Shown here piece after piece: positions 186 through 62,222 of a stretch of 64,000 bases of DNA. A program made the position numbers and the translations under genes. The notes below the pieces were generated by a model. It was given only the letters and a program-made list of their open reading frames with translations. It had not been told where the DNA came from and searched no databases. The DNA is from an uncultured Candidatus Saccharibacteria bacterium (lineage in GTDB: Bacteria > Patescibacteriota > Saccharimonadia > Saccharimonadales > 2-12-FULL-41-12), in the NCBI GenBank assembly GCA_947085855.1, contig CAMTYB010000001.1, positions 737,421-801,420 on the forward strand. Direction: 5' to 3'. Every line of letters starts with the position of its first letter. Within the stretch, counting starts at the first letter, position 1.

Positions 186-875
186 TTAGTCGAAGCTGCG
201 TGACAAGGTTTCCAGCTTTTGGCTGTTGAATTTGTGCAAGCGTGCCGGTCTGTGGGCGCCTTCACGGATATATTCATCGGTTGGATGAATCAGTTCCAGG
301 CTGAGGAATTTCTTGCGGAAGTTACGCTTATCGAGCGGTCGCCCGAGCACAGCTTCGTAGGCTGTTTGCAGCTGTGACAGAGTGAATAATTCAGGTATGA
401 GTGCAAAAATGGCGTTGGTATAACTTAGTTTAGAAATGAGGCGATCGTGGGCGTACTTGATAATCGAGGCATGGTCGTAGGCCAGCTCAGGTAGATTTTT
501 GACGCTAAAGAAGCCGGGCTTTTGGGTCTTTTGAGTCTCCTCTGGAATGACATTTCGACCAAGACCCATGTAGGTAATAGAGACTGCGTGGCCACGAGGG
601 TCACGAGCTATGGTGTCAAAAGTGTATAGCTGTTCAACGAGCTGCAAAGAGCTTGTTTTGACACCGGCCTTATCGGAAAGAACACGGTCCATGGCTTCTT
701 GAGTGGTCTCGCCAATGGCGTTGTAACCGCCAGGTAGTGCCCATTTGTCCTTAAACGGCTCTTTGGCTCGTTGGATAAGTAGGACTTGAAGATCGCCGTC
801 GACTATCTGAAAGATGACGCTGTCTACGGTTAGGATTGGTGGCAAATAACCATCATCGTACATACTGTCCATCAT
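186..875 (-). CDS. nrtR: NrtR-like Nudix-related transcriptional regulator of NAD metabolism
   Basis: 229 aa. The Nudix box is degenerate (GGYNAIGETTQEAMDRVLSDKAG keeps GX5EX7R but loses the REUXEE glutamates). The C-terminal winged-helix segment FTLSQLQTAYEAVLGRPLDKRNFRKKF is typical of NrtR. It lies 25 nt downstream of nadE on the same strand, with GAGGAA upstream of the ATG. Confidence 0.75.
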   Translation of the reverse strand: MMDSMYDDGYLPPILTVDSVIFQIVDGDLQVLLIQRAKEPFKDKWALPGGYNAIGETTQEAMDRVLSDKAGVKTSSLQLVEQLYTFDTIARDPRGHAVSITYMGLGRNVIPEETQKTQKPGFFSVKNLPELAYDHASIIKYAHDRLISKLSYTNAIFALIPELFTLSQLQTAYEAVLGRPLDKRNFRKKFLSLELIHPTDEYIREGAHRPARLHKFNSQKLETLSRSFD

Positions 876-50876: not shown

Positions 50877-50952
50877 GCGGGTGTAGCTCAGTTGATAGAG
50901 CGCTTCCTTGCCAAGGAAGAGGCCAGGAGTTTGAGTCTCCTCACCCGCACCA
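50877..50952 (+). tRNA. tRNA-Gly(GCC), CCA encoded; integration target (attL)
   Basis: Hand-folded. GCGGGTG/CACCCGC acceptor; anticodon arm CTTCC-TTGCCAA-GGAAG; T-arm AGGAG-TTTGAGT-CTCCT; then ACCA. Its last 18 nt recur at 57484-57501 and 58341-58358. Confidence 0.92.
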
Positions 50953-52495
50953 TACGAGCATTATCGGACACTTCGGTGTCCTTTTTGTTTGTCGCCAATC
51001 TGATAAGAGGACTAATTTCAGGGGTGTAAACATTTTTATTGTTGTCCAAGTAAAATCCACCTGGAAAAATGATTTGTTTACACTTTTGGACATCCTCAGG
51101 TGTTAGCGAGAAGAAGCTCTCTTTCAGGTTAATGGCGAAGTTGAATGCGAAGTCTAGAAAACGCTGCCTATCAGTATCAGATTTTTCATTCAGTGTCGCT
51201 TGCTCTTCTTCGAGGCTTGTTATTTGAGATTTCATCTTTTCAATATTAGACATAATCTCTTGCTTAATTGGCTTATTCGATGGATCAATGGCAGCCAACG
51301 CACGATTATCTATATCCTGACGAAGAGAGTTAATCTGCTTGCCGACACGAGCACTGTCCTGCTTGGCTTGGGCATTCTTTCTATTCCAGACATTATCTAG
51401 GGCTTCTGACAGGTTTCTTATGCCCGCTTCAGACACGGGGTTATCAATAAATAGTTGAGCAACTTTTGAGTGCAATTCGTCTCGGGTAATCAAGAGGCCA
51501 CAGGAACGACATTTATACCTAGCATAAATAACATTATGATTTTTACCGTTATCGTGGTCGAACCCGACCAACTTACCTTTGTTTTTTAGTTCTAAGCAGG
51601 TGTTGTGTTGAGTAATAGTGTTTAGTGGAAAATTTGGGTTGCCGTTCTTTCGAGGTCCGGTTTGATTTTTCTTCTTATCCGTAAATATTCTTACCAATTC
51701 ATAATGCTGATCCAGAGTGATTAGGGGATCGTGTAAGCCGTCTTCATTGCGTACTTTGACCTGTTGGTTAATCTCGACAGTGCCAGCATAGAATGGATCA
51801 GTAGCTATATTACGAAATTTGTCCATTTTTAATGGTGCTCGTTCTGAGGTGTAATCGCTTTTGTTTAATTCAATCAATCCATTAGTAGGAGTAACTGCAT
51901 GTTCCGCTATGCGTACTAGTACATTACGTAGAGCAGTACCTCTGACTGGATGTATCTCTGGCACCCCCGTTCGTGCCCCTTTCATATAGCCAGCTTTGGG
52001 ATGAAATGTATATCTTCCATCTTTGAGAGCAGTTGTATGGCCGGAAATGGATTTATGTATACGCTCCTCGTTGCTACCTTCAGCCTTGTATGCCTCAAGC
52101 ATTAGAAGCAGTGTATTGGCAGCGTTGTCTGTATTGAGAGTTGGCTGTGAAGCAAAGACAACCTTCACACCATGATTGTTAAATTGAACCAGGAAATACC
52201 CTATCTCAAGTATTGAACGCATAAAACGGTCAAGCTCATCGATGATTACATACTTAATTTGTTTATTCTGTTTACAAAGCTCCAACATTTCCTCTAAGTC
52301 TTTACGCTTCACATTGGTGCCAGCTTTACTACTGACACTTCCTGACCACACACGTATAATTTCTACACCAAGTTTCTCGGCGGCAGCATAAACAGAAGTT
52401 TCCTGACGAGACAGACTGTTATTCTCTTCTTGTTCTACACTCGATACCCTGCAGTTTGCTATTGCTAGTATTTTCTTAGACGTCATTTTTGCCAC
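50888..52495 (-). CDS. large serine recombinase (integrase)
   Basis: 535 aa. The N-terminal resolvase catalytic domain reads AIANCRVSSVEQEENNSLSRQ. It also has a recombinase domain, the zinc ribbon YKCRSCG and a long coiled coil. The last ~22 codons read antisense through tRNA-Gly. Confidence 0.88.
   Translation of the reverse strand: MAKMTSKKILAIANCRVSSVEQEENNSLSRQETSVYAAAEKLGVEIIRVWSGSVSSKAGTNVKRKDLEEMLELCKQNKQIKYVIIDELDRFMRSILEIGYFLVQFNNHGVKVVFASQPTLNTDNAANTLLLMLEAYKAEGSNEERIHKSISGHTTALKDGRYTFHPKAGYMKGARTGVPEIHPVRGTALRNVLVRIAEHAVTPTNGLIELNKSDYTSERAPLKMDKFRNIATDPFYAGTVEINQQVKVRNEDGLHDPLITLDQHYELVRIFTDKKKNQTGPRKNGNPNFPLNTITQHNTCLELKNKGKLVGFDHDNGKNHNVIYARYKCRSCGLLITRDELHSKVAQLFIDNPVSEAGIRNLSEALDNVWNRKNAQAKQDSARVGKQINSLRQDIDNRALAAIDPSNKPIKQEIMSNIEKMKSQITSLEEEQATLNEKSDTDRQRFLDFAFNFAINLKESFFSLTPEDVQKCKQIIFPGGFYLDNNKNVYTPEISPLIRLATNKKDTEVSDNARMVRVRRLKLLASSLARKRSIN
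50966..50986 (+). terminator. rho-independent terminator of the tRNA operon, supplied by the island side of attL
   Basis: GGACAC-TTCG-GTGTCC followed by TTTTT. Confidence 0.6.
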
Positions 52496-52709
52496 CTTGA
52501 TTTCTGTTTAATTCTATTACTGGACAATTGCTATTATATATGTCATAGATAAGTTCTGCCAAATCAAAAGCATCCCTTTTTCTTTGCTGTAAAGGAGTTG
52601 GTTCTGCGGTGTTTTTATCTTCGTCTTGATTTTTTTGTGTTGACTTGTGAGGAGGTGGAGCTGAAAAAGCAAGCTTTGACCCAACAGACACCTCTAATGG
52701 ATGAGACAT
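52476..52709 (-). CDS. small hypothetical protein upstream of and overlapping the integrase start
   Basis: 77 aa, overlapping the recombinase ORF by 20 nt. No motif recognised. It could be an accessory or directionality factor, or it could be non-coding. Confidence 0.35.
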   Translation of the reverse strand: MSHPLEVSVGSKLAFSAPPPHKSTQKNQDEDKNTAEPTPLQQRKRDAFDLAELIYDIYNSNCPVIELNRNQGGKNDV

Positions 52710-53086
52710 ATAGTCCCTTTCATTAGTGCCAGTCGGGGCATGATCCGACTTTAGCGTTTTAGGTTTCTGTGGGGAATTATTAGTTTGTTCGTATTAGCCG
52801 AACAGTTAGGCTACTATGCCAAAAGCTCACTCACTACTTATGACCTAATTATACGCTTATGCTTGCAAATTGTCAAGTTTTTGATGATAAAATATGCCGT
52901 TGGTACCGTGCAGTCTCCGAAAAAAGTATGTGAGCTGTTGCTAGTAATGTATGAGATCTAAAAGATGAACGAGAATACCCTCTGTAACCTCTCTGGAGAC
53001 GCCTAGAGCGTGTTTGGGCATTAAGTTGAGTAAATGTCCATTCTGTATAATTAGTAATAGAAATCAAAAAAATAAAGAGGAGCTTT

Positions 53087-53320
53087 ATGACTACGAAAAA
53101 TGCGATAGGCAGACCATTGAAAGTAGATGCTAAAGTCATAACAAAGTTGATGGCTGCACTACAAACCAACTCTAATATTAAAGACGCATGTAGCTATGCA
53201 GGTATTAGCCGTCAGACTTATTACTTTTACCAAAATAATGAATCTGTGTCCGCCGAAAAAATGAAAATAGCCAGAAATAATAGGAACAAATTGATGATGA
53301 GTTTTCTGACAGTTTGGTAG
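53087..53320 (+). CDS. small helix-turn-helix protein (resolvase-type HTH)
   Basis: 77 aa with a strong SD (AAAGAGGAG). GRPLKVDAKVITKLMAALQTNSNIKDACSYAGISRQTYYFY resembles GRP...HTH_7-type DNA-binding domains. Confidence 0.6.
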   Translation: MTTKNAIGRPLKVDAKVITKLMAALQTNSNIKDACSYAGISRQTYYFYQNNESVSAEKMKIARNNRNKLMMSFLTVW

Positions 53321-53418
53321 CTAAACCAGTTTCGTTTGCTATGTTTTTAAGAAAAATGGTGTCAGATAAAGTAATAATTAATCGACACCCTGTTTCGTAT
53401 CTGTTTTTATGACATAAT

Positions 53419-56343
53419 ATGAGCATGAACAATGGGTTAAGGCTGTTTAAGACTGTATTTTCAACATATCCTAAGAGGCAAACTTTTTTTATTGCTATTA
53501 TTCTTGCGACTATTGCATTGTTTTACTTTATCTTCAAGCTTGATGCACATAGTATTGGCATAAGACTTCCGGTTGTCTTGGCTGGATTTATATCTGGAGA
53601 ACACGAACTGGAGTTTATCACTGATGTATCAACATTTTTCGGACTTGTCTTGGGTATTGCCATTCCATTTGGTATTGAAATTGTTCAGACAGTCTCAAAA
53701 AATTTCTCAAATTCTAAGGTTTTAAGGTCACGCTTCAGAGACGAGTGGCAGATGATTGTGCTTGTACCTTTCTATATCGCAACACTATTGGTTGCGGTTT
53801 CCTCTCGCATGTTCATTAATGACACCCATCCTGACCTTGAGCGTGCCGTGTCGTTCAGCCTTCTCATATGTTTGTTTATCGGCATACTAATATTTGCAAA
53901 ATATATAAATAGACTTTATTTGTACACTCTTGACCATCGTCAGTTAAAGAGCGAGATAGAATCAGATCTAGGCAGCACGGTCGGTATTAATAAGTCTAAA
54001 TTCTCTGATTACATAGAAGGATTTGGCGATATTGCAGTTACTGAGGTTAAAAACAATGATAGTAAAGCAGTACTTACGGAATCGCTACCATTCTTAGAGA
54101 ATATTATTGAGCAAATTGTACCTAAGGGCGACCTAGAAAATGCAGAGAAGTTTTTGCTTAATGATGAATTTTGGGAGATGTATAAGCGTGGTAAAGTTGC
54201 AAAAACCGAATCCGAAAAGGCAGAAGAAGATACTGAGCTAGAAGATCCAAAATTTGTTGATTGGACTGAAGAAGCAAAGATGCGGCTATATTTTGACCCC
54301 GAAAAATACGTGTCATCTTACTCAAATGTGATTCAGCAAATAGAAAGAATATATCGTGAAGCAATAAAAAACAAAGATGATGAGCTGGCACGTAATGCCG
54401 CCTATTCGTTTACCAGAATACTCAAATATTTAACTTCAGAGCCTCAACGAGATTTATATGTAGAAATGCTCCTTAAAAAGATGGCGTTTTTATTGAGAGA
54501 CGCAGTCAAGTTCGATACTGTCTCTAAATATGCACTCGCAACTGATTGGTATACTTCGGTCGTCTTTGATAGTTTTGGCGACACTGAATTCGATATTAGC
54601 TACTTGGGCACTGTGAATAAATACCTTTATATGAATCTTAAGTTCTTTGTTAATGAGGATCACAAAGATTTGTTTGAGTCATTTATTGGGCATTTAGTCG
54701 ATGGTAGCATGGGCTTCCAATCATTCGATCGAATATGGGACTTGAGCAATCTACCACTAAGAACGAATAATCAATACACAACCGATTATGACGAAATACA
54801 TAACATGACTACGGAAATTGAAAATGCGAGAAGCCAGATCGAAAAGACAGAAGATTTAGATGAATGGATTAAAAGATTAGACTCACTTCTTAAATTGGTT
54901 CTTAAGTCGTTATCGAAAAAATCAGATAAAGCTGAAGCAAAGAAGATCTATGAGAAAGCAAAATCTGACACGGTCGAGTTATATAAAAGTAATAATATGA
55001 TTGGACAGATTTTTTCATTGAATATGTACTGCTTCTTTAAGAGGAAGTATGACTTCGTGAAGAAGGTCATTGATTACAAACAGCCGGAGGACTCTGATGC
55101 AAGCTGGGGTGGAAGCGATATACAGCCTAATACCCCGAATGACATAGTAGCTTTCTTCTACCGTAAGGGTTATTACGATAGGGATGAGCATTTTTTTGAA
55201 GGACACCACGGTAGTCGAATATATACAAACGAGTATTTTCTAATCTTACTGCTAACAAGCTTGAAACGATCGAGCACAGCAGAGGTGTCTGTCACAGGCA
55301 TTAAAAGTGCCTACAGATTAAGTGATATTACATTCACCCATGACTATTTAGTTTCAGTAGCCAACGAACGACTGAAGACTAATAATGACATGCTAGAAAC
55401 ATTTAATATTTCAGTTGAAGATATAGACGATATACTTTTGCCTGCATTGGAATCAATCAAATCGCAGGCGGAAGCAGCTATGGAGGCACTAGAACAATCA
55501 AATACGATTGAACCTGACAAGGTTAAGGAATTTAAGGACGAGGTACTTAAAACATATAAGGAAGGGGCTGTAGTAAGACAACTCTTTGAGCATTTTGGAC
55601 AGATTACTGCCGATGATACTTACATTGAGGGTAATGAGCCACCTCGTTTTGGGATTTATAAAGTAGATCAAAAAGCCCCATTCTTTAAGGAATGGAATGT
55701 TTCATACGGCAGACAGGGTGAGTCATACGGTTCGAGTCTAGCCCCTGCCGAGAACTTACACATGTATAACGAACTTAGAGAGAGTGTATCTAAAACATTC
55801 GATGATGTAACACAAGCTCTTGAGTTATGTGACCCGAAAAGTACTGTTCTACTAATGCCAAGTAAGATTCTGTATAGGTACGAGGAAGACTCTGCATTCA
55901 TACCGAAATGGCAGTCCAAGAGATCTCTGGGCGAAATAGAAGATATGCACGGTTATAGCGGTTACTATGAGTATGGCAAGGAAGCAATTCCTGTATTCGA
56001 AATAGGCTACCCATCAAAAGAGCGGGATGAATTTATGGTGATCGACTTTTCAAAGTCTGGGAAAATTAAGAACCTCAATCCATCTGGCAAGGAAACTCAA
56101 GAGGGAGATGTCTTGGAAAACCTATCAGTCAGTGTCCAGGCATTTATGGATAATGATGAGCTAATGAATATGTACTTAGATGAGCCACCAAAATGGCTTG
56201 CTGATATATCTACGGATCGTGAGAAGCGGAAGGTATATCTTATGAAGCGGGTAGCGATCAGAGTATTTACTCGATACGTAATCACTAAACCAAAAGACAG
56301 GAAGATCTACCTGATCCAACTGCAGTCCGAGAAAAAAGTCTAG
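53419..56343 (+). CDS. 974-aa protein of unknown function, with an N-terminal multi-TM module and a large soluble region
   Basis: The ORF is long and uninterrupted in an AT-rich context. About 5 hydrophobic helices lie within residues ~22-162, and the remaining ~800 aa are K/E/D-rich and helical-looking. I could find no P-loop, nuclease, protease or kinase motif. The extended -10 TGACATAAT (53410-18) abuts the first ATG, so the ATG at 53425 is an alternative start. Confidence 0.7.
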   Translation: MSMNNGLRLFKTVFSTYPKRQTFFIAIILATIALFYFIFKLDAHSIGIRLPVVLAGFISGEHELEFITDVSTFFGLVLGIAIPFGIEIVQTVSKNFSNSKVLRSRFRDEWQMIVLVPFYIATLLVAVSSRMFINDTHPDLERAVSFSLLICLFIGILIFAKYINRLYLYTLDHRQLKSEIESDLGSTVGINKSKFSDYIEGFGDIAVTEVKNNDSKAVLTESLPFLENIIEQIVPKGDLENAEKFLLNDEFWEMYKRGKVAKTESEKAEEDTELEDPKFVDWTEEAKMRLYFDPEKYVSSYSNVIQQIERIYREAIKNKDDELARNAAYSFTRILKYLTSEPQRDLYVEMLLKKMAFLLRDAVKFDTVSKYALATDWYTSVVFDSFGDTEFDISYLGTVNKYLYMNLKFFVNEDHKDLFESFIGHLVDGSMGFQSFDRIWDLSNLPLRTNNQYTTDYDEIHNMTTEIENARSQIEKTEDLDEWIKRLDSLLKLVLKSLSKKSDKAEAKKIYEKAKSDTVELYKSNNMIGQIFSLNMYCFFKRKYDFVKKVIDYKQPEDSDASWGGSDIQPNTPNDIVAFFYRKGYYDRDEHFFEGHHGSRIYTNEYFLILLLTSLKRSSTAEVSVTGIKSAYRLSDITFTHDYLVSVANERLKTNNDMLETFNISVEDIDDILLPALESIKSQAEAAMEALEQSNTIEPDKVKEFKDEVLKTYKEGAVVRQLFEHFGQITADDTYIEGNEPPRFGIYKVDQKAPFFKEWNVSYGRQGESYGSSLAPAENLHMYNELRESVSKTFDDVTQALELCDPKSTVLLMPSKILYRYEEDSAFIPKWQSKRSLGEIEDMHGYSGYYEYGKEAIPVFEIGYPSKERDEFMVIDFSKSGKIKNLNPSGKETQEGDVLENLSVSVQAFMDNDELMNMYLDEPPKWLADISTDREKRKVYLMKRVAIRVFTRYVITKPKDRKIYLIQLQSEKKV

Positions 56344-56345
56344 TA

Positions 56346-57221
56346 ATGAGTACCACGAAAGTCGAAGAAATAAATTCAATGTTTTTCGGAGACGAAAGGA
56401 CACACCGCTATCTATTAGACGTGTATCGAGAGTGTGTCGAGAAATTTATAGTAGCAAATGTGCTGGTTGAAGTCTGGGCACGAACAAAGGCAGGACATGA
56501 GCATATTAAGGGCAGGAACTGCAATACATGTGCTGTGTTCTTTCAGATTTATTATTCTTGCGTTGATTCGACATTCTTGCACCTGCGTTTGTTATTCTCT
56601 AAAAAAGAACCAGCCCTTGCGAGTTCTTTCTTGGAATCAGTCAAAGCTCTAGAAATGAAGGATTTTAAGAAATATTATGACGCTAAGTATGATCATAAAA
56701 TAAATAAAGATGAGCAAAAAGTTATTGAGCCACTATTTGTTCTGGCAGAAGATAATACTCAAAAAATATCCGACTTGTATTTGAAGCGTATCGAACCGTA
56801 CCAGGCATTTGCGTTCCATCAACCTAAAGACGGTAAGTATTATAAAGTTACTACAAGTGAGCGAGCCGATGAAGGTATGAGGTTTGTCACACATACCCTT
56901 GAGAAGAAATTCAAAAGAGACCTACAGCCTGCAAAAGAAATGCTAGAGTTGATTGCAGATGTCATCCATCTTTATTTGAGACTATCCAGTAAGTACTATC
57001 ATGTCCTAAAAATTTATCCTAAAAATTACGTTAATGAGATGGTATCAATACTAGGCGTAGAGAGTGTTGGCGAGACAACGATTTCTGAAATGATTAATAA
57101 TGCCACAATTGCCACAGAGAAACTCATACATCTACTTGAATGTAGCGGTGGCTTGGATAGTCATAATGGGTTACTTGTTGCAAAATTACAATCTGCACTA
57201 AGAAGCGATAGCAATTGCTAG
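56346..57221 (+). CDS. 291-aa soluble all-alpha-looking protein of unknown function, coupled to the 974-aa gene
   Basis: Only 2 nt separate the upstream stop (TAG at 56341-43) from its ATG (56346). It has no TM segment and no recognised motif. Confidence 0.7.
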   Translation: MSTTKVEEINSMFFGDERTHRYLLDVYRECVEKFIVANVLVEVWARTKAGHEHIKGRNCNTCAVFFQIYYSCVDSTFLHLRLLFSKKEPALASSFLESVKALEMKDFKKYYDAKYDHKINKDEQKVIEPLFVLAEDNTQKISDLYLKRIEPYQAFAFHQPKDGKYYKVTTSERADEGMRFVTHTLEKKFKRDLQPAKEMLELIADVIHLYLRLSSKYYHVLKIYPKNYVNEMVSILGVESVGETTISEMINNATIATEKLIHLLECSGGLDSHNGLLVAKLQSALRSDSNC

Positions 57222-57355
57222 TGCCTAGTGTAAGTACCAGCACTCACCTTATACCAGAGAACTCACGATATTGAACGTTTAACAGCGACCTCCATCGGTT
57301 GTATTCATCCCGTATAGAGTGAAAACTTTTTTCCATATCCTGCACCATGAAAAGA

Positions 57356-57379
57356 GTCGATCTTCGGATCGGCTTTTTT
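57356..57379 (+). terminator. rho-independent terminator of the cargo operon
   Basis: GTCGATC-TTCG-GATCGGC (one GU pair) followed by TTTTTT. It is preceded by an A-run, so it may act bidirectionally. Confidence 0.6.
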
Positions 57380-57419
57380 CATGCATGGTCACGGGCGCAA
57401 ACTCCATGCCCGTCAGGGC

Positions 57420-57501
57420 AGAGTTTGATAATTGGAAGCTCTCGCAGAAGCTCGCTTCGAGAAAGCTGAACAATTTCCGCCCTGTCTCCTCACCCGCACC
57501 A
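57420..57501 (+). repeat. 82-bp direct repeat R1 (attR of the island); its last 18 nt equal the tRNA-Gly 3' end
   Basis: AGAGTTTGATAATTGGAAGCTCTCGCAGAAGCTCGCTTCGAGAAAGCTGAACAATTTCCGCCCTGTCTCCTCACCCGCACCA. It is identical to R2 at 76 of 82 positions. Confidence 0.85.
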
Positions 57502-57517
57502 ACCATAAGCACTATGA

Positions 57518-57541
57518 AAAGAGACCTCAAGGTCTCTTTTT
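57518..57541 (+). terminator. rho-independent terminator immediately after R1
   Basis: AAAGAGACC-TCAA-GGTCTCTTT followed by TT. Confidence 0.55.
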
Positions 57542-57591
57542 GATACCTGAGGATAATAAGTCTATTATAGGTTTATAAACAGAGGAGTATC

Positions 57592-58191
57592 ATGCGAAAA
57601 ATTATTGTCCAAGAATTTGTCACAATTGATGGCGTAATGCAAGCACCAGGCGGTCCGGAGGAAGACCCGACAGCCAAATTTGAATTTGGAGGTTGGCAAG
57701 CCCCATTTATGGACGACGATGCAGCGGAATTAGTAACTGGTCCAGCACTCAAGGCTGATGTTGAATATTTACTAGGGGGATACACATTTGACATATGGTC
57801 CGGCTATTGGCCCAAGCACGGTCAAATTTGGCCATTTATAAATGACAATATGAAGTATGTTTTATCGGCTACAAAGACCGAAACGAACTGGCAAAACACC
57901 ACTTTCCTGCGAAACGTGGAAGATATTACAAAGTTGAAGAACTCAAATGGTCCTGACCTCCACGTTTGGGGCAGTAGTAAGTTGGTGCAATTACTCCTTG
58001 CAAACGATCTTGTAGACGAACTCTGTCTTATGACCTATCCGATTATTCTTGGTCAAGGAAAAAAGCTTTTCAGCGATAATGCAGTTCCAAGAACATTCAC
58101 GCTCATTGAAAATCATGTCGGTAGCAAAGGTGTCATTGTCGCTCGCTACGCACGCGCGGGTGCAATTGAAACTGGCATAGTCGGCGAATAA
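57592..58191 (+). CDS. dihydrofolate reductase-like protein (RibD C-terminal domain family)
   Basis: 199 aa. MRKIIVQEFVTIDGVMQAPGG... and ...LHVWGSSKLVQLLLANDLVDELCLMTYPIILGQGKKLF are typical of the RibD_C/YwjB-like family. Confidence 0.8.
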   Translation: MRKIIVQEFVTIDGVMQAPGGPEEDPTAKFEFGGWQAPFMDDDAAELVTGPALKADVEYLLGGYTFDIWSGYWPKHGQIWPFINDNMKYVLSATKTETNWQNTTFLRNVEDITKLKNSNGPDLHVWGSSKLVQLLLANDLVDELCLMTYPIILGQGKKLFSDNAVPRTFTLIENHVGSKGVIVARYARAGAIETGIVGE

Positions 58192-58276
58192 CTTCAATAG
58201 ATTATTCTATTCTTGATTATGCTACTGACTGGGATGGTAGGTGCACCTAGCAACTTACCATCCACTAGCGCATCAA

Positions 58277-58358
58277 AGAGTTTGACAATTGGAAGCTCTA
58301 GCAGAAGCTTGCTTCGAGAAAGCTGAACAATTTCTGACTTGTCTCCTCACCCGCACCA
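58277..58358 (+). repeat. 82-bp direct repeat R2 (outermost attR); probably carries the original tRNA-Gly 3' end
   Basis: AGAGTTTGACAATTGGAAGCTCTAGCAGAAGCTTGCTTCGAGAAAGCTGAACAATTTCTGACTTGTCTCCTCACCCGCACCA. Confidence 0.85.
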
Positions 58359-58395
58359 ATTACAGAAACGGTGTACTTCTGTTAAAATAACAGAT

Positions 58396-58468
58396 GATGC
58401 GGTGACCGAGAACAGGTGGTAGCTTGCAAAGCTACATACGGCAGCTTCGTGTCTGCCCCGCATCTCCA
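58396..58468 (+). tRNA. tRNA-Cys(GCA)-like gene with atypical D- and T-loops (could be a pseudo-tRNA)
   Basis: Hand-folded. Acceptor GATGCGG/CCGCATC with discriminator T followed by CCA, as expected for Cys. The anticodon arm is GTAGC-TTGCAAA-GCTAC. The D-loop has no GG, and the T-arm GGCAG-CTTCGTGT-CTGCC has an 8-nt loop lacking A58. Confidence 0.5.
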
Positions 58469-58473
58469 AAATT

Positions 58474-59454
58474 ATGACAGCACAAGACTACATACAAACC
58501 AAACTTAAAGAACTGAAACAGCCAGTTGGATTAAAGAAGCCCGATAATACGGATGAGCTGGTAGAAGCTATTTTTAAGGCTTTGATGTCCAAGAAGTTTC
58601 GTAAGTATTCTGCTAACGAAGACCTGCAAAAAAGTGTCAGAACTGCCATTAGAATTAACGTTGAGAAGAACGAGCCAATCAACGTAACTTTTCTGCACGG
58701 TGCATACAAGCTGTGGCGATTAGAAGAAGCTCCTGAAACCGATTGGGCGGAACTCTTTTCACTTATGTACTATTCAGCTTGGGTAAAGCCAATATGCGAG
58801 ATTTACGAGCCAGGCGTATGGTTTGACTTCTTCGTAGACGACTACATCATCAACCGCCTAGACAACATACCGATGTCAGACGTTCAAGCTTACATAGATA
58901 GTTACCAATCACTTATAGATTTCCTAAAACCGTACCAGCCGAGCAACCTCAAAATGACAATAACAACCGTCGGTGGTCAGTTCCCGTCAGAAGATGCCTT
59001 TGATAAGTCGTTAGAAGCAAACCTTGAAAAGTTAACAACAGAAACCCCTGGCGGTTTGCCCGAACTTAATGACGCTCAACGAGCTATGGTTGAATTAAAT
59101 ACTAAAGCGACAGACGAACAGCTAAAAGACCCTAAATGGCGAGAGAAGGTCTTTCACTTGCACAATGCCTATATGGCTACGAAAGCCGAACCTGGTTATC
59201 ACAAAGGAAGACCAGAAAAGATTATGGCGTTCACGCAACCACTACCATCTGGCACTACCATTTCAGTAGGCACAACTAAGAGTTCAATTATGAAGTTCTG
59301 GGTAGGTGTTGGTGTATTACGGCGGAAAGAGGATAGCTATAGCCAAGTCATACTTTCGCCGAGCCAACTTGAAAAGTCGCAGTTTAATCTTGAGGACGTT
59401 CAGATCGACAACTTAAACGGTAAAAACTTTAAGAAAGTGAGGGTTATGAAGTGA
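58474..59454 (+). CDS. hypothetical enzyme-like protein (326 aa)
   Basis: The ATG lies 5 nt after the tRNA-Cys-like CCA and has no SD. The segment EPINVTFLHGAYKL...PETDWAELFSL...ICEIYEPGVWFDFFVDDYIINRLDNIPMSDVQAYIDSY loosely recalls the PvcA/Dit1-family pattern. That comparison is from memory only. Confidence 0.55.
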   Translation: MTAQDYIQTKLKELKQPVGLKKPDNTDELVEAIFKALMSKKFRKYSANEDLQKSVRTAIRINVEKNEPINVTFLHGAYKLWRLEEAPETDWAELFSLMYYSAWVKPICEIYEPGVWFDFFVDDYIINRLDNIPMSDVQAYIDSYQSLIDFLKPYQPSNLKMTITTVGGQFPSEDAFDKSLEANLEKLTTETPGGLPELNDAQRAMVELNTKATDEQLKDPKWREKVFHLHNAYMATKAEPGYHKGRPEKIMAFTQPLPSGTTISVGTTKSSIMKFWVGVGVLRRKEDSYSQVILSPSQLEKSQFNLEDVQIDNLNGKNFKKVRVMK

Positions 59455-61682: not shown

Positions 61683-62222
61683 ATGAGAAAAATATTCCTA
61701 TTCATGATGGTCACCCTAGATGGCTACTACGAAGGTAAAGACCACGACATAGCTTGGCATAATACTGACCAAGAGTTCACGAAGTTTGCCAATGAGCAGC
61801 TGGATGAAATTGACACCATGATTTTTGGTCGTAAAACCTATGAAATGATGGCCGATTTTTGGCCTACACCACATGCTCAGGCGGAAGCACATGACACTGC
61901 AGTCCGAATGAATAGCTTGCACAAAGTTGTCTTCTCTCATGAAACATTTAGCACAGACTGGAAAAACACCGAGGTTTCTACCGATCTTGCAGGAAAAGTC
62001 AGAGAGTTTAAAGAACAAGGCGGCAAAGACATAGCCGTAATGGGTAGCTCACACCTTGGCAAGGCAATGCTCGAAGCAGGATTGCTGGACGAAGTTAGAC
62101 TTATGATCAACCCAGTTTTTATTGGCCAAGGGTCAACGCTTTTTGACGGACTTAATAAAAAGCTAACGTTAGCCAGCACTCGAACATTCAAAAATGGCAA
62201 CGTTCTCCTGGTCTACAGGTAA
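61683..62222 (+). CDS. dihydrofolate reductase-like protein (RibD C-terminal domain family), second copy in the window
   Basis: 179 aa. MRKIFLFMMVTLDGYYEG..., MIFGRKTYEMM and ...AVMGSSHLGKAMLEAGLLDEVRLMINPVFIGQGSTLF. Confidence 0.8.
   Translation: MRKIFLFMMVTLDGYYEGKDHDIAWHNTDQEFTKFANEQLDEIDTMIFGRKTYEMMADFWPTPHAQAEAHDTAVRMNSLHKVVFSHETFSTDWKNTEVSTDLAGKVREFKEQGGKDIAVMGSSHLGKAMLEAGLLDEVRLMINPVFIGQGSTLFDGLNKKLTLASTRTFKNGNVLLVYR

Follow-up and report, generated by a model that had tools for sequence, protein, structure and literature searches.

Two 83-bp repeats of a broken T-arm and a tRNA-Gly 3' end as a probable chromosome-side flank of tRNA-Gly in a Saccharibacteria genome

Cis-mobilisation is the defining property of cis-mobilizable elements (CIMEs) in the ICESt1/ICESt3 literature on integrative and conjugative elements (ICEs), and in the work on Prochlorococcus tycheposons elements are said to accumulate at tRNA genes. 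Tandem arrays of genomic islands at one tRNA gene are known (125 tandems among 3919 islands; PMC4383910), and the tycheposon preprint (bioRxiv 10.1101/2020.12.28.424599) describes tandem repeat junctions, subpopulations that lost the element, and a large serine recombinase encoded by a minority of tycheposons. The locus analysed here lies in a 64,000-nt stretch (64 kb, hereafter the window) of contig CAMTYB010000001.1 from an uncultured Candidatus Saccharibacteria bacterium, in which a tRNA-Gly(GCC) gene is followed by an integrated serine-integrase element and, beyond the end of that element, by two direct repeats, R1 and R2. At a probability of roughly 0.55, R1 and R2 are interpreted as two copies of an 83-bp unit consisting of a broken T-arm and a tRNA-Gly 3' end, which belongs to the chromosome-side flank of tRNA-Gly.

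Like displaced tRNA-gene 3' fragments and tandem island arrays of the Islander type, the locus contains direct repeats of a tRNA 3' end, in tRNA orientation and stacked downstream of the gene; in contrast to such arrays, the neighbouring integrase element does not end at the repeat, and only 18 nt of it are tRNA sequence, preceded by a hairpin-interrupted T-arm. An integrase-less segment between two repeats is shared with ICE/CIME accretion in Streptococcus thermophilus, but the segment in the window lacks the attachment (att) arm of the resident integrase, and cis-mobilisation is without sequence support. Tycheposons are comparable as small cargo-carrying elements, whereas they occur in another phylum and use another integrase family, the window cassette has neither an integrase nor a replication gene, and no counterpart has been described among them to the interrupted-T-arm composites or to the 86-nt module presented below. 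Units of one to three genes in one orientation, separated by structured imperfect palindromes of 80-200 nt, are found in the window and in L112, L067 and L140 (L-numbers denote loci or contigs of relatives, P-numbers proteins) and recall integron cassette arrays. However, instead of IntI and attI, the only recombinase is of the serine type with its own attL and attR, and none is enriched near the composites; the window has no Pc promoter, its cassette has an own promoter-like site, and tRNA genes are both the source of the repeats and the place where they are anchored. The resemblance to integrons is architectural only.

The two repeats are located as follows:
57420-57502, plus strand: R1, with the 5' half of the T-stem and the start of the T-loop (AGAGTTTGA) followed by a hairpin insert of 55 nt and by the 18-nt tRNA-Gly 3' end plus A
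58277-58359, plus strand: R2, second 83-nt copy, without an upstream pairing partner, 36 nt upstream of a tRNA-Cys-like gene

A repeat search identified R1 and R2 as one strong direct-repeat family between 55 and 60 kb of the window (83 nt, 93% identity, 77/83), with a start-to-start distance of 857. A previous reading made from the letters alone (hereafter the sequence-only reading) had described 82-nt repeats identical at 76 of 82 positions, which was borne out, the units gaining one common A; its 857-bp spacing with a terminator and one RibD_C gene inside was likewise recovered by repeat search, sequence and Pfam. All six mismatches (repeat positions 10, 24, 34, 59, 61, and 63) are situated within the non-tRNA portion. 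The final 18 nt of both copies, GTCTCCTCACCCGCACCA, correspond to tRNA-Gly(GCC) 50935-50952 and match at 18/18 positions at 57484-57501 and 58341-58358 on the plus strand in tRNA orientation, and they are the only part matching the end of tRNA-Gly, as had been claimed. The opening 9 nt, AGAGTTTGA, equal the tRNA-Gly stretch GGAGTTTGA at 8/9 positions, a match that, taken alone, could be due to chance; the same layout (T-stem 5' half, insert, tRNA 3' end) recurs in relatives, in agreement with the proposed echo of the T-arm. At its 3' side the repeat stops where the mature tRNA ends in CCA, R1 terminating in ...CACCCGCACCA, followed by ACCATAAGCACTATGAAAAGAG, a hairpin, and a T-run. Both repeat boundaries are sharp, and the immediate outer flanks of R1 and R2 are mutually unrelated. 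The window contains two copies, and none were found elsewhere in the searched loci and metagenomes.

The position of the repeats relative to the integrase element depends on the following features (no strand is given for the attL core and for the element as a whole):
50877-50952, plus strand: tRNA-Gly(GCC), functional gene with T-loop TTTGAGT (ARAGORN; Rfam tRNA model, 70.4 bits)
50888-52486, minus strand: integrase of the large-serine-recombinase type, 532 aa, its 3' end running antisense through the tRNA terminator into tRNA-Gly
50947-50953: attL core GCACCAT (CCA end of the tRNA and one T), where the integrase element has its crossover region
50954-57348: integrated serine-integrase element of about 6.4 kb, with the integrase gene, small open reading frames (ORFs), a 974-aa ORF, and a 291-aa ORF
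57226-57348, minus strand: attR P arm, encoding the excised-form integrase tail MVQDMEKSFHSIRDEYNRWRSLLNVQYREFSGIR plus stop antisense from 57348 to 57247; core GCACCAT at 57342-57348
57349-57385, plus strand: trailer and terminator term1 on the chromosome side (GAAAAGAG, hairpin TCGATCTTCGGATCG, T-run)
57386-57419, plus strand: degenerate remnant of the tRNA-Gly T-arm in inverted orientation (TGGTCACGGGCGCAAACTCC...), which provides the 5' strand of the R1 composite helix

The 6.4-kb element encodes a serine integrase and has the CCA end of tRNA-Gly as its insertion site, with the core GCACCAT. Within the searched 50-59 kb, GCACCAT occurs only at 50947 and 57342 and is the only stretch common to attL and attR, and the flanks diverge on both sides of this core, as expected for attL and attR. 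Region 57226-57347 was similar to the far element end in L065, L002, L066, L003, L001, and L059 (72-87% identity, blastn); the 121-nt far-end block always ends in ...TGCACCA in these six relatives, with flanks diverging beyond. When read antisense and joined to 50954, the block extends the integrase ORF as ...ARMV followed by QDMEKSFHSIRDEYNRWRSLLNVQYREFSGIR and a stop, which is the same tail as in P0018, P0020, and the circular contig L187. A tail-coding segment is present upstream of the integrase gene in most of 62 loci of GTDB species representatives (tblastn) and is conserved at the amino acid level. Contig L187, which encodes P0018, comprises 5,409 nt and, because of its 30-nt terminal direct overlap and an ORF running continuously across the joined ends, is a circle of about 5.38 kb. 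It represents the element family in its excised or plasmid-like form and encodes an integrase with the full 33-aa tail but no tRNA. The integrase gene spans attP, and integration swaps the 33-aa tail for residues read antisense from the tRNA. The attP context was reconstructed as GCTCGT ATGGTGC AGGATATGG, and the empty site expected after excision, if the mapped attR is right, reads ...GCACCA directly followed by TGAAAAGAG. The G+C content of the element is 36-41% versus 45-51% upstream of the tRNA cluster. In P0041 and P0043, in L001 (2374-2469), and in L020 (1573-1659 and 2414-2542), another conserved tail type was observed, [LM]VRSLDxRWN...; it diverges one codon later than the main tail, which suggests a sub-family with a shifted crossover or another P arm.

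The integrase, which is identical to P0001, matched Pfam Resolvase (4.8e-17, residues 12-161), PHROG 95 (phage large-serine-integrase family; 1e-40, residues 3-443), and serine-recombinase catalytic domains in the PDB, including TP901-1 integrase. Cysteines C297, C326, and C329 are invariant and form a Cys-rich motif in a long C-terminal DNA-binding region, as in large serine recombinases; the Pfam models Recombinase and Zn_ribbon_recom gave no match on this protein. Nearly all homologues belong to Candidatus Saccharimonadales/Saccharibacteria, and in 41 of the 62 GTDB loci tRNA-Gly(GCC) is found antisense near the integrase gene, nearly always overlapping its 3' end; in a few relatives the overlap is with Arg, Ala, or Leu tRNAs rather than Gly. 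The conserved C-terminus, ...NKKD[T/A]E[V/A]S...MVRVxxL plus stop, is the antisense of the tRNA terminator hairpin, the acceptor 3' strand, and CCA, and across homologues the T/A and V/A changes in KKD[T/A]E[V/A]S covary like compensatory changes of a terminator stem. The usual stop codon results from antisense reading of TTAGAG, the common T-loop sequence; with the T-loop TTTGAG of the window, the ORF extends by 14 residues to ...LKLLASSLARKRSIN plus stop (overlap of 50888-51010, minus strand, with 50877-50990, plus strand).

It is known that the integrases of Mx8 and SSV reach across attP (PMC4383910, in which Tojo et al. 1996 is listed on the changed C-terminus of IntP), and SSV-type integrases carry the site inside their own ORF according to PMC7253208. 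The integrase of the window is similar to Mx8 IntP and the SSV type in that its ORF crosses attP and integration alters the C-terminus. In contrast to these tyrosine recombinases, it is a recombinase of the large serine type targeting a tRNA gene, the swapped part is a 33-aa tail, and the integrated gene ends in codons antisense to a tRNA and its terminator. Targeting of tRNA genes by serine integrases was not known as of 2014 (PMC4383910).

Three further genes are located within the element:
53087-53320, plus strand: helix-turn-helix (HTH) protein, 77 aa, similar to HTH/terminase-small-subunit-like PHROGs (4.9e-10); it could be the excisionase or directionality factor of the element
53419-56343: 974-aa ORF
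56346-57221: 291-aa ORF
As a side observation, a related integrase element carries a reverse-transcriptase gene (RVT_1, 284 aa; L190, 4251-5105) as cargo.

As the attR/tail block stops at 57348, the element ends 72 bp before R1. The boundary lies at 57342-57348, and R1 starts farther out, past a chromosome-type terminator (term1), whose symmetry reaches into its flanks (bidirectional, with a terminator-like match on the minus strand at 57371-57358) and whose hairpin is also present 3' of a tRNA-Gly 3'-end copy in L021. Following term1, the remnant at 57386-57419 was found by comparison with the reverse complement of tRNA-Gly. Both repeats carry GCACCAA versus the element core GCACCAT, the window has a single tail-coding segment, and no tail-coding P arm is located near R2. 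The 64-nt arm of the repeats, taken for an attP arm in the sequence-only reading, is thus not the P arm of this family, which is the tail-coding block ending at 57348. With regard to CIMEs, the R1-R2 segment has no recombination or transfer genes of its own, RibD_C being the only gene between the repeats, and it is not bordered by att sites of the type of the neighbouring integrase (GCACCAA, no P arm at R2). The proposal that the outer segment is mobilisable in trans was not supported, no sequence evidence of the integrase acting on R1 or R2 being found; the CIME analogy is therefore architectural only. Two further candidates were rejected: R as the excised-form integrase C-terminus (the ORF is open through R but encodes there a peptide unrelated to the tail that is conserved, the latter being located at 57247-57348), and the 'GCACTA' after R1 as a third att core (it is part of the common tRNA trailer motif ACCATAAGCAC..., also found in L099, L082, and L098).

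Composites of tRNA fragments near Saccharibacteria tRNA genes showed two predominant arrangements, of which type B is the trailer composite as defined in this analysis. Such trailer composites follow many Saccharibacteria tRNA genes, and the structured insert in the T-loop of their leftover 3' half is usually the 86-nt module. Type A (n = 31) has the order tRNA 5' part, module (the 86-nt RNA element described below), short inverted T-arm, -10 box, and intact tRNA. Type B (n = 36, 15 anticodons) has the order intact tRNA, terminator, inverted remnant, T-stem 5' half, module, and tRNA 3' end with CCA, the intact same-strand tRNA ending 55-97 nt (median 80) before the insert. Terminator, inverted remnant, and distance of type B are all present at R1, whose insert begins 81 nt past the attR CCA; R2 has neither a terminator nor an inverted partner. 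R1 also ends in the manner of type B, with the cognate tRNA 3' end and CCA followed by a second trailer and terminator (compare L099, L067, and L140), and the order attR, terminator, inverted remnant, T-stem 5' half, insert, and tRNA 3' end is shared with L034, L021, L032, and L022. The 55-nt hairpin insert of R1 and R2 is weakly similar to those of L034, L032, and L112, where tRNA-Gly composites have short hairpins as inserts. With the element removed, tRNA-Gly would be followed by term1, the inverted remnant, and R1. Because its insert is at the type B position, 81 nt after the attR CCA, R1 is best read as a resident trailer composite of tRNA-Gly that was displaced by 6.4 kb by the integrase element. 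The tRNA-derived parts of composites match the local tRNA variant, and composites in general may arise either by small T-loop insertions that bring a replacement 3' end or by template switching at tRNA and terminator palindromes with subsequent insertion of the module.

Folding of 57386-57501 resulted in a three-way junction (-40.7 kcal/mol, z = -2.8), in which the stretch upstream of R1 pairs with GAGUUUG and CGCCCUG of R1. R2 with its own upstream sequence reached z = -0.4, the upstream stretch being unable to pair with R2, and three of the six R1-R2 differences fall within CCGCCCTG, a segment that is paired in R1. R2, which repeats the distal 83 nt only, is thus a structurally orphaned copy that has lost its pairing partner. 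R as a stand-alone structured RNA was rejected, as neither strand of R1 and R2 surpassed shuffled sequences in folding (z = +0.5 to +1.3).

The insert in L011, L022, L049, and L039 is a conserved element of about 86 nt with the layout 5'-UGAGA, hairpin P1, CGCAAGG, long helix P2/P3, GGG, and hairpin P4, and the first ten copies showed compensatory changes in 22 of 34 pairs. A degenerate pattern retrieved at least 120 metagenome stretches, in 80 of which a covariance model identified 100 module copies. Among 98 distinct module sequences, 97.1% of cells were paired, with double changes in 31/34 pairs (slid controls, 26-46%), in an alignment that was fitted to the model and hence somewhat favours the structure. 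A conserved G-U pair assigns the structure to the tRNA-sense strand. Copies (L067-L146, n = 100; also L009, L011, L018, L022, L038, L039, L043, and L049) are always situated within a loop of a tRNA fragment, mostly the T-loop, in some cases the D-stem/position 26 or the anticodon loop of tRNA-Pro-like copies; they are often clustered (2-3 copies per 1 kb), and the neighbouring intact tRNA genes are of many identities. Rfam contained no family for R, the module, or the Cys-like element, viral contigs gave 0 matches to the module pattern, and no recombinase or other protein family was found in more than 8 of the 80 loci. The module as a clean tRNA intron was rejected, its deletion with 0-2 nt offsets yielding ARAGORN tRNAs in 0/112 cases, with the T-loop 1-2 nt short. 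As a separate observation, L039 has a second complete tRNA-Gly(GCC) (372-543, plus strand) with its own TATAAT box and the 86-nt module in the T-loop, inverted relative to the integrase-linked tRNA-Gly about 11 kb away.

The region between the repeats and downstream of R2 contains the following features:
57503-57591, plus strand: trailer CCATAAGCACTATGAAAAGAG, terminator term2 at 57515-57545 (hairpin GAGACCTCAAGGTCTC plus T-run), and a promoter-like site at 57540-57568 (10/12 match)
57592-58191, plus strand: RibD_C-family gene, 199 aa (Pfam PF01872, 6e-15), the only gene between R1 and R2
58396-58469, plus strand: tRNA-Cys-like element with GCA anticodon, U73, 3-bp D stem, and non-canonical T-loop (cloverleaf fold, z = -3.1)
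58474-59454: conserved ORF, 326 aa, starting 4 nt past the tRNA-Cys-like CCA (4-8 nt across genomes)

The trailer after R1 is homologous to the flank after attR in L099 (AACCATAAGTACAATGGAAGAGATC), and RibD_C homologues immediately follow attR in L038 and, in L099, precede a tail-coding attR as the last gene. The tRNA-Cys-like element and the downstream ORF are kept in L014 (16221-16294) and L044 (152-225), with covarying acceptor and T stems, so that the gene proposed after R2 was confirmed insofar as a GCA cloverleaf is kept in two other genomes; ARAGORN and Rfam did not call it, even at E ≤ 10, and it may represent either an atypical tRNA-Cys or a leader resembling a tRNA. In L044, element and ORF lie 75 nt behind the attR of an integrase element, which shows that R2 sits at the ancestral end position of tRNA-Gly, where tRNA-Gly adjoined the tRNA-Cys-like gene; the proposed ancestral order of tRNA-Gly followed by tRNA-Cys is therefore supported. 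Farther downstream, a second RibD_C paralogue (61683-62222; 26% identical to the cassette gene, 3.5 kb downstream) has small metabolic genes as neighbours, including YCII and a 2-hydroxyacid dehydrogenase, and the DNA around it has a G+C content of about 43% versus 45-51% upstream of the tRNA cluster. The whole stretch beyond the tRNA-Cys-like element may be variable DNA.

Accretion at tRNA-Gly was also observed in relatives. Two to three tail segments in tandem behind one integrase gene, without extra integrase fragments, are present in L001, L015, L017, L020, L021, L033, L065, and L190, and these are arrays of integrase-less element relatives (CIME-like) accumulating at tRNA-Gly. Tandem composites bracketing 1-3 genes occur in L112 (three module composites and two short ones), L067 (two), and L140 (two, 785 nt apart), and in L067 and L140 a short tRNA-end core with a terminator behind it closes the cassette. 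Such accretion agrees with the idea of sequential integration at one attB; R1 as attR and a shared 64-nt attP arm are not supported.

According to the interpretation of R1 and R2 as chromosome-side copies, repeated insertions at the tRNA-Gly 3' region would have displaced older 3' ends downstream, and the RibD_C cassette (trailer, terminator, own promoter, and one gene) together with one R would have been acquired by recombination at an R or tRNA-end copy already in place, for which homologous recombination over 83 nt fits the data as well as a site-specific event. Several observations weigh against this interpretation. The 64-nt arm had 0 exact matches in metagenome contigs, and blastn of 66 loci returned itself only; in the searched data the arm is unique to this lineage. 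Exact-protein look-ups gave nothing or the same arrangement, and neither an excision product nor a single-R population was seen. The 86-nt module of type B had no cmsearch match at R1 or R2 (filters off, E ≤ 10), and nhmmer detected none in the window, for which reason the insert as a copy of the module was rejected; the assignment of R1 to the trailer composites is thus based on position, layout, and the weak similarity of the short insert. No composites were found behind tRNA-Gly in L005, L010, and L190, relatives with the same tRNA variant, and L190, the closest of these, has no R-like composite. Finally, RibD_C also follows the tRNA-Gly site in L038 and could therefore be resident rather than imported. 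An alternative explanation does without any mobile cassette: RibD_C would be resident, and R1 and R2 would have been made in place from palindromic remnants of tRNA-Gly, through replication template switching, unequal crossing-over, or gene conversion among these. The alternating direct and inverted tRNA 3'-half copies around terminator and T-arm palindromes look like a template-switching product, and the match of the composites to the local tRNA variant, the L038 arrangement, and the lack of any recombinase or other protein family enriched near composites agree with it as well; however, simple unequal crossing-over should duplicate more than 83 nt, whereas the outer flanks of R1 and R2 are unrelated, the L067 and L140 cassettes end as expected for site-specific insertion, and RibD_C is not syntenic in L052, which carries its closest homologue. 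Formation in place is considered tenable but doubtful.

The model of the sequence-only reading, with R1 as attR of the island and R2 as attR of an older integrase-less element that shares the 64-nt attP arm and is mobilisable in trans as in ICE/CIME arrays, would account for direct repeats that end in a tRNA 3' end in tRNA orientation, for the integrase gene between the tRNA and R1, and for the tandem integrase-less relatives at the same tRNA in other genomes. It is contradicted for R1 by the family P arm ending at 57348, and the single tail segment, GCACCAA instead of GCACCAT, and the chromosome-type terminator between attR and R1 also argue against it, as does the antisense R peptide, which is unrelated to the tail and in which 4/6 differences are non-synonymous; this model is very improbable. 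Instead, R itself might be mobile or retro-copied, as a small unit that is either a processed tRNA-like transcript with a CCA end or a MITE-like sequence (MITE, miniature inverted-repeat transposable element), with R2 as a secondary insertion. Sharp boundaries on both sides, the 3' one at the mature CCA end, and the multi-copy nature of the related 86-nt module (tRNA remnants carry at least 100 copies, within T-loops or anticodon loops or close to the D-stem) are in line with such a unit, but only two copies exist in 64 kb and none elsewhere in the searched data, R alone folds no better than shuffles, the window element has no reverse transcriptase, and random insertion leaves the location of R2 exactly at the ancestral tRNA-Gly end unexplained, which makes a mobile R improbable. 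It is also conceivable, though unlikely, that R1 and R2 are degenerate members of an undescribed phylum-wide system, in which module-bearing tRNA halves flank tRNA genes and serve as secondary or decoy att sites, so that small cassettes are collected in a tRNA-anchored, integron-like manner in ultra-small genomes; the module would then be a selfish element targeting tRNA loops or a functional tRNA-linked RNA.

The main added value of this analysis is a tRNA-targeting serine integrase whose gene spans attP, together with the 86-nt module in tRNA remnants of Saccharibacteria. Mapping of islands based on tRNA genes can misplace island ends in Saccharibacteria, because resident tRNA-end copies adjoin the tRNA genes and the true element boundary has a core of 7 bp only. 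The window element clearly exemplifies tRNA-gene targeting by a serine integrase, and the C-terminus that is rewritten on integration is a possible built-in switch between the integrative and the excisive state. The integrase family is frequent in this phylum, for which few mobile elements are known and genetic tools do not exist. The 86-nt module is a widespread, strongly covarying, and undescribed RNA absent from Rfam; should it prove mobile or functional, it would bear on gene gain and on the protection of single-copy tRNA genes in the reduced genomes of the candidate phyla radiation (CPR).

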